Shown here piece after piece: positions 23,254 to 27,204 of a DNA stretch of 41,474 nt. Each line of letters opens with the position of its first letter. Within the stretch, counting starts at the first letter, position 1. The translations under genes were made by a program, and so were the position numbers. Below the pieces are notes generated by a model. The model saw only the letters and a list, made by a program, of their open reading frames with translations, searched no databases and had not been told where the DNA came from. Source of the DNA: Planctomycetota bacterium. GTDB lineage: Bacteria; Planctomycetota; Planctomycetia; Pirellulales; Pirellulaceae. The DNA lies in contig JAYVKA010000121.1 in NCBI GenBank assembly GCA_043768885.1, positions 1 to 41,474 on the forward strand. The letters run 5' to 3'.

Positions 23254-26200
23254 TTAGACAAGAACCGGGCAAAGATCCGCCCATATCTGGCTGAGCACGT
23301 TGAGCGTCTCGCGAATTTGAGATTCGCTGTGAGACGAAGTGATAAAGAACCGGACACGTGCCTGGTCCTCGGCAACGGCCGGGTAAAGAATCGGCTGGGC
23401 ATTGATCCCGGCATTGAACAGCCGTTCCGACATTTGCAAGGCCGCCATTGAGTTGCCAGTGATCGCTGGAATGATCGGGCTGTCCTGGCTGGGGCCAGTG
23501 TTCAGGCCGGCTTTCCTCGCAAGGTCGAGAAACTGCTTGCTGTTCTTCCGCAACTTATCAACCCGTTCCGGTTCGGCTTGCAACATCCGAAGCGAGGCCA
23601 ATGCGGCTCCAACATTGCCTGGCGGAATTCCGGCGGCAAACACATAACCTGGCGTCGTGTATCGCAAATAATTTATCAGATTCCTGCTACCACCGATGAA
23701 TCCTCCGCAACTGCCAAAAGACTTGCTGAGTGTTCCCATCCAGCATTCGACATCCGTTCTCGCGATATTGAAGAGCTCTCCAATGCCGCGACCCGTTGCC
23801 CCCATTGTTCCAATCGAATGGGCTTCATCGACGAACATCCAGCACTGATGTTTCTTTTTGATATCAACAAATCGCGGCAAGTCCGGAATGTCGCCGTCCA
23901 TGCTGTACAGCCCTTCGATCGCGATCAGCACGCGGCGATAGTCCCGGCGAATTTCACCGAGAATCGAATCCAGCTGCTCCCAATTATTGTGTTCGAACGG
24001 GCGTCGGCGAGCTCCGGAAAGTTCTGCTCCCTGAATGATGCTGTTGTGGGCCAGCGAGTCGTGCAGAATCAAATCGCCTTTGCCTGCCAGGTGACCAATC
24101 ACAGATTCGTTGGTCGCATGACCACCTGGAAAAGTAATGACGTCTTCCACCCCAAGAAATTCTGAAAGTTCCTGCTCGAGCTCGCGATGGATTGATTTCT
24201 CTCCGGAAACCAGGCGGCTGGCGGAAACACTGGTTCCAAAGTTCTGAATCGCGTTGATCGCTCCCTGACTGACTTTGGGATGTCCCGACAGGCCCAAATA
24301 GTTGTACGACGAAAATGAAATCAGTTCGCGACCGTCGATTATCGTCGTGTCAGCGATTACCCCTTCGTGAACGCTGAAAAATGGATTCCGGATTCCCGAT
24401 TGCTCAATCTGTTCCTGCGCCCGTTGCAGCCGAAGAAACTCCGGCGTTTGTTCCAGAACATAATGCGACGCAGGTATCGGTTGATCTTCTGGAGTACGGT
24501 CCGGTGCCGAGACCGGCTTCAATCGGATCGCCGAACCGTTAACCTGCTTTGTGCCAATGTATTCCTGGACCGCCGCAGCAACTTCGCGAACAGTCTCGAC
24601 TTCCTGAAGTACCTCGTCCGGAATTCGCCCGCCAAACGAAGATTCGATTTCGCTGGCAATTCTCAATCGCTCCAGCGAATCCAGCCCCAGATCGACCACG
24701 ATATTGGAGTCAAGCGTCAGGTCGCGCGCCCGTTCACGGGCAATTTCCCGAACAAACCTCATCACAACATCAATTACGCCAGGATCAAGATCACCGTCAT
24801 CCTTGCAGACCCGTTCGAATTCGGAAACGTGTCCGTTCGAATGGACCGGGTCGGCGATATTCCAGCTATCCACGACCAGCAATTTGTTTTGCCGGTAGTT
24901 TTCGCGGCAGGCCCTGCGTTGGACTTTGCCGCTGGACGTTTTTGGAATGCTGTTGGCCCGAACCAATACAACTACGTCGACCGCGACTTCGTGTTCGGCA
25001 GCAACAGCCGACCGAACGATCTGGGTCAATCCATCCAGTTCCACATCGGGACCGCGTTCAACTTCACAAACAATCACCAGCTGTTCACGATCCCAATGAT
25101 CGATCGCAAAGGCTGCAGCTCCGCTGGTACGCAACCGCGGATCCGCCGATTCAACGGTTGATTCAATGTCCTGCGGATAACGGTTCACGCCCCGGACAAT
25201 AATCATGTCCTTCAAACGACCCGTCACAAACAATTCACCCTGGTCAACAAATCCCAGGTCACCAGTCCTCAACCAGGTTCGTGATGGATCGGCCGCTGTC
25301 CTGGCCCGAAAGGTTCGCTCGGATTCCTCGGGCTTGTCGAGGTATTCCCTTCCCACGCTCGGACTGGAAACCCAGATCTCGCCGATTTGTCCGTCGGGCA
25401 GAAGTTGAAGCGATTCCGGGTTTACGATGACTAGCTCTTCATCTTCGATGACATTTCCGCAGCCAACCAGTTCGTTTCCATCCGGATCGCCCGGTTCCAG
25501 TTCTCGAACCCGGTAACTGGCCAGCTCGTGCCGATCAAAAGTACGAAATGCCGGTGCCTCACTTTTCTTGCCACCCGTAATAATCAACGCGGCTTCGGCC
25601 ATTCCGTAACAGGGGTAGTGCGATTCATGCCGGAACCCATACGGCGAGAACTTCTCGCTGAATGATTTCAGAATCGCCGCCCGGACCGGTTCGGCTCCAT
25701 TGAACGCCAAACACCATGAAGACAAATCCAAATCGTCACATTGATCGTCTGATATTTTTTCGACACACAACGCGTAGCTGAAATTGGGTCCGCCGGAGAC
25801 CGTAATTTTGTGTTTGGAAATCGACTTGAGCCATCGGATGGGTCTGGTCAAAAATGAAACAGGACTCATCAACGTATTTGTGAAGCCGCCATACATCGGG
25901 TTGAGGACACCACCGATCAGGCCCATGTCATGATAGACCGGCAACCAGGTAAGTCCCTGACTGGCTGGCGTAAGTTCAAAACCCAACATGATCATCCGGG
26001 CATTGGCCATCAGATTTTGGTTGGTTAACACGACGCCCTTCGGCGAACCGGTTGAACCGGAAGTGTATTGAATCAAACCAATGTCGTTGCCAGAGACTCG
26101 CGGTTTGGTCCAGTCGCTACAAAGCTCGGTCGGGATTTCGTCTGTGCAAACCCACGGCACGGACTTCAAACTCAAAGCCTCGTCCATCAGTCCGTCTGAC

Positions 26201-26631
26201 CGTTCATAAACGTCACTGATTGTCAAAGCAACATTTGCATGGGCATCTTCGCTGATCGCATTGATCCGTCCCATATTCCGGTTTCGGCGCGGGGGATAGG
26301 CCGGGATCGGAACCACGTTGGCGTAGTAACATCCAAAAAGGGCTTCGACAAACTCCAGACCCGGGGGGTACATCATCAGGGCACGCTTGTTTTGCATGCC
26401 CATCGAAACGAGATGAGCCGCAATCGCCCGGGCCCGGGTATCCAGCTCGGCATACGTCAGCGTGACCTCGTCGTCTTCGCCATCGCGCAGGAATCGATAC
26501 GCCAGCTGTTCAGGCTGGGCAAGCGTCCAGTACCGCAGGCGGTCCAGAAAGTTGGTTTCTGGCGGAGAAAACGGGGCCAGCAATTCGTCAATTTTCACTC
26601 GGTTCAATGCTCCTCGGGTGTTACCAGCCAT
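23254..26631 (-). CDS. Tri-domain fusion: fatty acyl-AMP ligase (FAAL-like adenylation) - acyl carrier protein - PLP-dependent alpha-oxoamine synthase (Spt/BioF/Kbl family)
   Basis: Adenylation core [11 protein letters not shown] (aa 189-199), GDLGF..[20 protein letters not shown] and SSGKVQRR. Carrier motif [10 protein letters not shown] (Ser652, nt 24676-24678). AOS boxes HDSLAHNS and VDEAHSIG, with the PLP lysine in [13 protein letters not shown] (Lys970, nt 23722-23724). The 1125-codon ORF is uninterrupted and starts with an ATG. Confidence 0.9.
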   Translation of the reverse strand: [1125 protein letters not shown]

Positions 26632-26847
26632 TTTACGACAAATCCGCCCCCACTTGGAATGCCCGCGATTGTCTCATCCGGCGATTTCCAGCATGTAGTC
26701 TGCCACTCCATGGCAAACTTTGACACCAAAAACCGCCGGTTGAACAGACGAAAAGCCCCTTTTCCTGTCGGAATCAGACGATAACCTGTGAACATTCCAA
26801 TAGACACGACCGGTCAAACCGGCCCCAATTCACTCCCGGAATCCAAA

Positions 26848-27204
26848 ATGGAAACGTTCAAATTGGTCATGCCAGAAAACCTGAATCACTTTGGATACCT
26901 GTTTGGAGGCTACTTGCTCATGTGGGTCGACGAAATTGCCTGGATGGCGGCAACCCTGGAATTTCCCGAACACCGCTTTGTTACCATCGGCATGGACCGG
27001 GTCGAATTCAAACACGGTGTGCGGCAGGGGACAATCCTGAAATTCCAGACAACCCGGACCCGGACAGGAAAAACTTCGGCAGATTTCCTGGTGGATGTCC
27101 GGTCCGCCAATCAAAAAGGGATGCTGGAGTCGATTTTCTCGACAACAGTTACGTTGGTAAATGTCGATGAAAACGGGCAAAAATCGCCTTTGGCAACATG
27201 CTAA
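26848..27204 (+). CDS. Acyl-CoA/acyl-carrier thioesterase, hotdog fold (YciA-like)
   Basis: METFKLVMPENLNHFGYLFGGYLLMWVDEIAWMAA...FVTIGMDRVEFKHGV matches the acyl-CoA thioester hydrolase hotdog pattern. It is divergent from the FAAL-ACP-AOS gene, with a 216-nt spacer. The ATG at 26848 is preferred over the listed GTG at 26788. Confidence 0.8.
   Translation: METFKLVMPENLNHFGYLFGGYLLMWVDEIAWMAATLEFPEHRFVTIGMDRVEFKHGVRQGTILKFQTTRTRTGKTSADFLVDVRSANQKGMLESIFSTTVTLVNVDENGQKSPLATC

Follow-up and report, generated by a model that had tools for sequence, protein, structure and literature searches.

The release of a carrier-tethered acyl chain by decarboxylative condensation with an amino acid is a chemistry for which RedL and PigH of the prodiginines, as well as SxtA of saxitoxin, provide functional examples of off-loading alpha-oxoamine synthase (AOS) domains. 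A comparable logic operates at the start of a bacterial membrane-lipid pathway. In Caulobacter the serine palmitoyltransferase Spt was shown biochemically to prefer acyl-AcpR made by the acyl-ACP (acyl carrier protein) synthetase AasR (PMC9386255), such that a dedicated ligase loads a dedicated carrier and an AOS dependent on pyridoxal phosphate (PLP) condenses the acyl group with an amino acid (PMC9386255, PMC11324152). The gene considered here lies in a contig of 41,474 nucleotides from a planctomycete of the family Pirellulaceae (JAYVKA010000121.1 of assembly GCA_043768885.1; this whole stretch is hereafter the window), and encodes a fatty acyl-AMP ligase (FAAL), an ACP and an AOS. Unlike the AasR, AcpR and Spt proteins of Caulobacter, the three parts form one polypeptide, and neither cerR nor cerS is found nearby. 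Taken as a whole, this fusion is in our reading probably a self-loading Spt-type enzyme making a 3-ketosphinganine-like base, its generic chemistry being more certain than the part concerning serine and sphingolipids.

An original prediction, made from the sequence alone, had described one uninterrupted open reading frame (ORF) of 1125 codons, and the ORF list agrees with it in extent and strand (Table 1); in the public annotation the identical protein (P0001) is called with 1114 aa, and the true start may lie 11 codons further downstream. The three Pfam families that had been expected are all matched far over their gathering scores, namely AMP-binding at aa 38-431 (198 bits), PP-binding (PF00550) at aa 623-688 (41 bits against a cut-off of 20.8) and Aminotran_1_2 at aa 769-1112 (154 bits), as is AMP-dom_DIP2-like, the C-subdomain of adenylating enzymes, at aa 475-585. 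Likewise, all the motifs quoted earlier (62 residues, and a further stretch of 13) are found in the translation, and in an alignment of 19 homologues S652, K970, H862, D935, H938 and R1094 are invariant. Around Ser652, the residue previously proposed to carry the phosphopantetheine, D651 and L653 are invariant too, and the carrier assignment holds. Judged from the alignment, all the catalytic motifs of the fusion protein are intact. A full-length AF2 model (mean pLDDT 70, pTM 0.48) contains three folded units set apart by linkers of low confidence (aa 594-613, 699-716 and 746-770), with a helical bundle at aa 617-691 between linkers of low pLDDT on either side; at this pTM, too low for inter-domain docking to be read, the model confirms the domain boundaries only.

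Table 1. Positions in the window of the fusion gene, its domains and key residues, and the adjoining divergent gene.
Feature	Position	Strand	Evidence
Complete FAAL-ACP-AOS fusion gene	23254..26631	minus	1125 codons, uninterrupted ORF, ATG start
Fatty acyl-AMP ligase domain, aa ~26-593	24853..26556	minus	motifs (41 residues and 10 residues)
FAAL-specific insertion region, aa ~354-392, ending LVGCG	25456..25572	minus	alignment with FAALs and FadD
Carrier protein domain, aa ~614-698	24538..24792	minus	Pfam PP-binding, 41 bits
Phosphopantetheine-attachment Ser652	24676-24678	minus	D651-S652-L653 invariant in 19 homologues
PLP-dependent AOS domain, aa ~731-1122	23266..24441	minus	Pfam Aminotran_1_2
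Schiff-base Lys970 of the AOS domain	23722-23724	minus	conserved in 27 aligned AOS sequences
Hotdog (4HBT) thioesterase-like gene	26848..27204	plus	Pfam 4HBT, E 2.5e-11; ORF opens at GTG 26788, conserved protein starts at ATG 26848
Intergenic region between the divergent fusion and hotdog genes	26632..26847		ORF coordinates

In the catalytic cycle that we propose, the N-terminal FAAL would adenylate a free medium- or long-chain fatty acid and pass the acyl group, not to CoA, but to the phosphopantetheine borne by Ser652 in the cis carrier, from which the tethered thioester would be delivered to the C-terminal PLP enzyme. There the external aldimine of an amino acid at Lys970 would be deprotonated, attack the thioester in a Claisen condensation and lose CO2, releasing a 2-amino-3-ketoalkane and regenerating the holo-carrier. 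The committed step towards a long-chain base would in this way be accomplished in one three-station protein without recourse to acyl-CoA or to the housekeeping ACP. The amino acid is most probably L-serine, giving a 3-ketosphinganine-type base, the main alternative being L-alanine, which would give a 1-deoxy base; serine is favoured because of the LCB2-like sequence of the active site, the position in the tree and the ceramide-type gene clusters of relatives, all considered below. The fatty acid's chain length, the amino acid, the product and its feeding into a membrane lipid are parts of the scheme that we infer, and the reduction and N-acylation of the base would be encoded elsewhere in the genome.

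The architecture is neither rare nor previously unseen. The same four-domain protein recurs in more than 120 clusters of full-length homologues, with identities of 58-76%; of these clusters, those with names belong to Pirellulaceae, Planctomycetaceae, Mariniblastus or unclassified Planctomycetota, and a scan of species-representative genomes returned loci labelled Rhodopirellula, Blastopirellula, Bythopirellula, Rubripirellula, Pirellula staleyi and Thermoguttaceae. Outside this Pirellulales-type group, full-length fusions are present in Pyrinomonadaceae (47% identity), Nostoc minutum (45%), Phycisphaerales (45%), Legionella resiliens (38%), Limnothrix (38%) and an Acidobacteriota chromosome (37%). 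The last of these, L025, appears as two ORFs, one for a FAAL and one for an ACP-AOS (7947-9668 and 9813-11354), which is due either to a frameshift or an error in sequencing or to the system being naturally divided there. Blastopirellula sp. JB062 has two FAAL-ACP-AOS genes (L009 and L026), one of them a Pirellulales-type orthologue at ~50% identity; the second, at 37% identity (34% in the AOS domain), falls outside the main clade and adjoins miaA. The domain order had been tabulated in 2013, in a survey of PLP domains in assembly lines that lists A3ZWL3 of Blastopirellula marina and A1ZVW4 of Microscilla marina as A-CP-PLP2(AOS) and gives them no substrate, cluster type or function, the entry being '?' (PMC3870968). 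Both entries share the domain order and, as reported, the phylum of the fusion, and, judged by domain order, they are very probably orthologues of the window gene. A metagenomic study of 2024 in the ISME Journal counted 138 Planctomycetota genomes with 'Spt-like' proteins and describes no fusion (PMC11334938). In a full-text literature search we found no open paper that joins a FAAL with an AOS or 8-amino-7-oxononanoate synthase or that describes a fused Spt, the architecture being listed in the 2013 catalogue (PMC3870968) alone, and no functional characterisation came to light.

By sequence comparison the adenylating domain is a FAAL and not an amino-acid A domain, as had been predicted. NCBIfam models of FAAL subfamilies give 390-425 bits on the fusion, models of long-chain-fatty-acid-CoA ligases at most 301 and the AA-adenyl-dom model 134, so that it is with FAAL models and FAAL structures, and not with the A domains of nonribosomal peptide synthetases, that the ligase scores best. 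The curated cut-offs (600-1100 bits), which pertain to specific named families such as FadD32, are unreached. Among solved structures the best 15 relatives are all FAALs, headed by 7r7g (554 bits; the alignment spans aa 26-590 and has no large gap), which we take to be an olefin-synthase loading domain, and followed by FadD32, FadD23, FadD28 and the FAALs of Legionella (3kxw) and E. coli. An insertion of ~25 residues (aa ~354-378) is present in the fusion and in the FAALs of Roseomonas, Legionella and Nostoc, is represented by a gap in E. coli FadD, and lies in a region that matches the corresponding segment of 7r7g without a large gap. Transfer of the acyl group to a holo-carrier, and not to CoA, is consistent with the carrier domain in cis. 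The fusion resembles the FAAL loading domains (7r7g, deposited as 'Polyketide synthase'; FadD32 with Pks13; Legionella 3kxw) both in this insertion and in the handing of the product to a carrier; unlike those of polyketide synthase (PKS) systems, its acceptor carrier feeds a PLP enzyme and not a ketosynthase.

The C-terminal domain belongs, on alignment, to the AOS family, since H862, D935, H938, T967, K970 and R1094 are invariant in 27 of 27 AOS sequences that include BioF, Kbl, HemA and SPTs. Within the family the original prediction, noting an SKS context around the PLP lysine, had placed it nearer to SPT than to BioF or Kbl, and three kinds of evidence concur. First, the solved relatives begin with plant LCB2a (235 bits), Sphingobacterium SPT (222) and human SPTLC2 (222), and continue with the Thermus BioF/Kbl enzyme (216), E. 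coli Kbl (211) and the E. coli and mycobacterial BioF proteins (166-168). Secondly, the SKS context is real: the stretch of 13 residues around the lysine is a near match to that of plant LCB2a, while Kbl and BioF have G-K-A/G at this place, and two alignment positions found only in SPTs, S971 and A1085, are shared by the fusion (Ala stands at the first of them in the Legionella and Nostoc relatives). Thirdly, in neighbour-joining trees of 27 and 36 sequences with 300 bootstraps the Pirellulales-type fusions form one clade (100%), nested in a group of carrier-fed, assembly-line AOS domains (83%); this group unites with the stand-alone AOS of an Acidisoma cluster containing SDR (short-chain dehydrogenase/reductase), GNAT, hydroxylase and glycosyltransferase genes (92%) and then joins the eukaryotic LCB2/SPTLC2 proteins (79%). 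The fusion AOS stands apart from the Sphingobacterium and alphaproteobacterial SPTs, the deeper nodes having at most 53% support, and PigH branches elsewhere. Unlike a Caulobacter-type Spt, the window AOS is placed outside the alphaproteobacterial branch, in a carrier-fed clade nearer to eukaryotic LCB2. The likeness to LCB2a and SPTLC2 (7yjo, 7k0i) extends to near-identical DEAHSIG and G-T-[LF]-[ST]-K-S-F-G-S-C-G-G-[FY] stretches and to their sister position at 79%; the overall identity to the window AOS is, however, ~35-36%, and the eukaryotic enzymes are membrane-bound heterodimers using acyl-CoA and lacking a ligase or carrier domain.

None of the curated NCBIfam equivalog thresholds of other AOS activities is reached (bioF 341 of 426 bits, Kbl 298 of 460, ALAS 237 of 339, CqsA 165 of 428). 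An assignment as Kbl fails on this score, and no tdh was found in the Pfam-scanned neighbouring ORFs of the window. Identity as a CqsA/LqsA autoinducer synthase was rejected at 164.8 bits, and the precursor of a CAI-1-like signal that had been offered earlier as the alternative product is accordingly disfavoured. A biotin enzyme, in which the ligase would load pimelate on the carrier and the AOS would act as BioF to yield 8-amino-7-oxononanoate, might be suspected from the top NCBIfam AOS model, which is bioF (TIGR00858, 341.5 bits), and from the JGI name of homologues, '8-amino-7-oxononanoate synthase/acyl carrier protein'. That score nevertheless misses the bioF cut-off of 426.45, the BioF structures of E. 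coli and mycobacteria (166-168 bits) rank under the SPTs (222-235), and the domain does not nest in the BioF clade (E. coli, Cupriavidus, B. glumae), which is separate with 98% bootstrap. Moreover, the ligase is closest to long-chain FAALs (7r7g, FadD32, Legionella 3kxw), no bio genes lie near any examined locus, and relatives are found in clusters of sphingolipid type. The biotin reading was rejected, and we regard it as extremely improbable.

The notion that the gene is a 'Rosetta stone' for a set of separate proteins gains substance from the sphingolipid region of Roseomonas, where an ACP, Spt and a 'fatty acyl-AMP ligase' that shares an operon with an SDR are encoded by distinct genes. The ligase is 34% identical to the FAAL domain over 568 aa, the stand-alone ACP beside spt 32% identical to the carrier domain over 60 aa (E 2e-8) and Spt 31% identical to the AOS domain over 390 aa. 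On plasmid p546-2 of Roseomonas haemaphysalidis (L099 1-2099) the SDR and 'fatty acyl-AMP ligase' genes overlap by 4 nt and lie ~10 kb from acp-spt. This arrangement suggests a FAAL-like nature also for the acyl-ACP synthetases of AasR type found in alphaproteobacterial sphingolipid clusters, the orthology of the Roseomonas FAAL and AasR being drawn from gene position only.

The earlier view of three activities combined in a sphingoid-like synthase is further supported by fused relatives, whose AOS domains, in those examined for context, are 49-54% identical to that of the window, and several of which sit among ceramide-type genes. In Legionella resiliens (L021, NZ_JAJTND010000004.1, 3295-17220) the fusion occurs amid genes for a YghO-type GNAT, PAP2_3, a CDP-alcohol phosphatidyltransferase, a fatty-acid hydroxylase and an SDR, together with a desaturase bearing a Lipid_DES (sphingolipid delta4-desaturase) domain and three glycosyltransferases (GT1, GT2 and GT4). 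To judge by these domains the cluster is a recognisable, compact, eukaryote-like sphingolipid pathway; we found no open paper on it, and NCBIfam has no model for its GNAT, PAP2 or hydroxylase proteins. In the Acidobacteriota locus the fusion stands between an NAD-epimerase-type reductase, ahead of it, and a GNAT, behind it; in Phycisphaerales (L020) the fusion is co-oriented with an ABC ATPase, an unknown ORF and a GNAT; and in Nostoc and Limnothrix an SDR is immediately downstream of the fusion. Similarly, the Acidisoma AOS locus, sister to the carrier-fed clade, has SDR and GNAT neighbours.

Bacterial ceramide synthases (bCerS) are GNAT proteins. The GNATs of ~380 aa in the Phycisphaerales, Legionella, Acidobacteriota and Acidisoma loci are 30-40% identical to one another, and members of this YghO family were located at 14315-15466 in L020, 5771-6910 in L021, 11378-12499 in L025 and 7780-8964 in L085. 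On the Roseomonas plasmid a member directly follows an LptF/LptG pair, ~7 kb from acp-spt, reproducing the Caulobacter order CC_1156-CC_1155-CC_1154 (cerS) (PMC11324152); for this reason we take the GNAT to be of the bacterial ceramide-synthase type, and by this analogy the YghO-family GNAT is a candidate bCerS. The family that accompanies AOS and Spt genes is that of E. coli YghO (36% identity), whose function is unknown and for which NCBIfam has no model, and the Roseomonas member is annotated 'dATP pyrophosphohydrolase'. The GNAT of L020, a Phycisphaerales metagenome-assembled genome (MAG), is 72-81% identical to many proteins, some named Betaproteobacteria or Casimicrobiaceae, which suggests, on sequence identity, a recent horizontal transfer or a binning problem. 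A protein search with this GNAT returned only proteins of 67-81% identity, again some named Betaproteobacteria, and was uninformative for Pirellulales.

The closest AOS sequences themselves point in another direction. A search yielded 4792 AOS representatives at E<=1e-30, of which the nearest 150 (48-59% identity) are in almost every case the C-terminal part of a long protein; those sampled comprise FAAL-ACP-AOS proteins, type I PKSs with the order ketosynthase (KS), acyltransferase (AT), ketoreductase (KR), dehydratase and AOS, KR-ACP-AOS proteins and one stand-alone enzyme. A plasmid search gave the same pattern, with a Planktothrix agardhii plasmid PKS (WP_042158693, 55%) and a Bacillus tropicus ACP-AOS (WP_042514330, 50%), and classical Kbl, BioF, HemA and the Spt proteins of Bacteroides and alphaproteobacteria are 27-35% identical to the fusion AOS. 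P0241, an ACP-KS protein of 1741 aa with two matched AOS stretches, outscores every other representative (618 bits) and is apparently a PKS whose PLP domains lie in tandem. The same chemistry could then serve another role, the fusion being a minimal loading and off-loading module of a specialised-metabolite pathway that would use an amino acid other than serine (alanine, glycine or another) and make an amino-ketone signal or a product cyclised to a pyrazine or alkaloid. Besides the overwhelming presence of PKS-terminal or multidomain proteins among the closest AOS representatives, such a role would fit the Nostoc and Limnothrix gene, which is accompanied by an SDR, ABC transporters and a second FAAL, the lack of ceramide genes nearby in Pirellulales, and the fact that specificity for serine cannot be read from sequence. 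The window protein, however, differs from the PKS-terminal AOS proteins, with which it shares the release of a carrier-tethered acyl group by decarboxylative amino-acid condensation, in having no KS, AT or KR extension module, only loading and off-loading, and in being encoded by a gene that behaves as a conserved core gene and not as part of a biosynthetic island. Across Pirellulales-type genomes it is a well-kept single gene beside arg, Sua5 and GAPDH, unlike an accessory cluster; three fused relatives and the Acidisoma sister are found in ceramide-type clusters; and the CqsA score noted above is far from its threshold. The specialised-metabolite role is the strongest of the rivals, though we hold it to be clearly the less likely explanation.

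Against these indications several observations weigh on the proposal of an Spt-type enzyme in the window. The curated Spt equivalogs are all unreached (SerpalmtaseCFB 305 of 640 bits, BetaP 283 of 500, AlphaP 228 of 670), and bioF heads the NCBIfam list. The neighbour-joining trees are small and the order within the carrier-fed clade is unresolved, while the nearest AOS relatives, mostly C-termini of type I PKSs and other multidomain proteins, may use other amino acids. One fused relative, that of Pyrinomonadaceae (L016), has acyl-CoA dehydrogenase and MFS genes beside it, a non-lipid context. To our knowledge sphingolipids are unreported from cultured Pirellulales or from other cultured members of this phylum, and our literature search found no paper on them. 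Finally, no conserved reductase, GNAT or lipid gene was found within ~8-10 kb of ~25 Pirellulales-type loci or in the 41-kb window; co-localisation of ceramide genes with Spt is, it should be said, not obligatory (PMC11334938). With these points taken into account we continue to favour the self-loading Spt-type enzyme, with serine as its presumed substrate and a 3-ketosphinganine-like base as its presumed product.

The organisation around the gene bears on a further suggestion, namely that the divergent hotdog gene is a functional partner of the fusion, either supplying free fatty acid from acyl-ACP or acyl-CoA or editing a mis-loaded carrier. The gap of 216 nt previously given between the two genes is correct when counted from the ATG at 26848, and becomes 156 nt from the GTG at 26788. 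The divergent arrangement with its short shared intergenic region, the 4HBT family and a weak YciA match of the hotdog protein could all be taken to favour a partnership, as could the retention of the block Sua5, hotdog (divergent), fusion, argB and argF in four species-level loci, where the fusions are 63-76% identical to that of the window. Hotdog copies of ~70% identity occur in the same position only in L094/95, L096 and L097/98, and a profile built from them found no copy in any other fetched fusion locus. The same block, however, keeps Sua5/TsaC, argB and argF, which are unrelated to lipids, and in L094 and L095 an unrelated ORF is inserted between the two genes. Because the synteny of the hotdog gene is shared with housekeeping genes, its adjacency reflects descent and is not evidence of a functional pair; the thioesterase partnership proposed earlier is not borne out, and we think it rather unlikely. 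The inserted ORF, of 240 aa and without a Pfam match (L094 5282-6004, L095 4017-4739), belongs to the closest relatives of the window (76% identity), overlaps the fusion start by 4 nt, and is not present in the window with its gap of 156-216 nt.

The flanks are as had been described, argB (AA_kinase), argF (OTCace) and Sua5/TsaC being confirmed by Pfam. The mechanically called argB and argF ORFs (22268-23284 and 21277-22380) open a good way upstream of where the conserved proteins begin, and run into the fusion stop codon and into one another; as the homologues have 290 and 304 aa, the true genes are shorter and leave the fusion gene clear. The statement that the window lacks a ketoreductase, an N-acyltransferase and a phosphopantetheinyl transferase (PPTase) stands in so far as tblastn found no SDR, GNAT or CerR homologue and Pfam no SDR, GNAT or PPTase in the scanned ORFs, the smaller leftover ORFs and those at 7008-7556, 16817-18157 and 18290-19264 being listed only and no PPTase-specific search having been made. 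Elsewhere the window appears to hold housekeeping and envelope genes typical of planctomycetes, among them DUF1559, T2SS-F, glycosyltransferases, threonyl-tRNA synthetase and a 2-oxoacid dehydrogenase. An envelope or glycan run on the minus strand at 30280-39764 comprises a GT2 (30280-31197), a GT4 (31248-32399), a sulfotransferase-like gene (32435-33268), three large ORFs without a Pfam match (33377-34789, 34901-36649 and 36646-38655) and an ABC ATPase (38736-39764); no link between this run and the fusion gene was found. All-against-all clustering of the flank ORFs of 28 loci revealed nothing lipid-related that is conserved beside the Pirellulales-type gene, its sole recurrent neighbour being a weak BBP7 porin-like protein in 7 loci. 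On these gene contexts the Pirellulales-type fusion behaves as a core gene in non-biosynthetic neighbourhoods.

The fusion itself could have been foreseen from known chemistry, and genes for the later steps are not found at the loci of the Pirellulales lineage. It constitutes direct 'Rosetta-stone' evidence for a wide occurrence, beyond Proteobacteria, of the acyl-ACP route to sphingoid bases that is known from Caulobacter. If a sphingoid base is made, lipids of sphingolipid type would characterise, as a conserved trait, an entire order of Planctomycetota whose cultured strains are not known to make them, and there would be a concrete gene behind the 'Spt-like' signal in 138 Planctomycetota MAGs (PMC11334938). 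The matter is open to experiment, since the gene is present in cultured genera (Blastopirellula marina according to PMC3870968, and loci labelled Pirellula staleyi, Rhodopirellula and Rubripirellula). A single soluble polypeptide converting free fatty acid, ATP and an amino acid to a long-chain base would, moreover, be a convenient biocatalyst. It is conceivable, as a speculation against which the odds presently lie, that Pirellulales-type planctomycetes make an unreported sphingoid or 1-deoxysphingoid core membrane lipid, begun by this self-loading enzyme and finished by enzymes other than bCerS and CerR, the PLP domain being that of the bacterial lineage nearest to eukaryotic LCB2/SPTLC2. 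Were this true, the existence of such a lineage would bear on the origin of eukaryotic sphingolipid synthesis.

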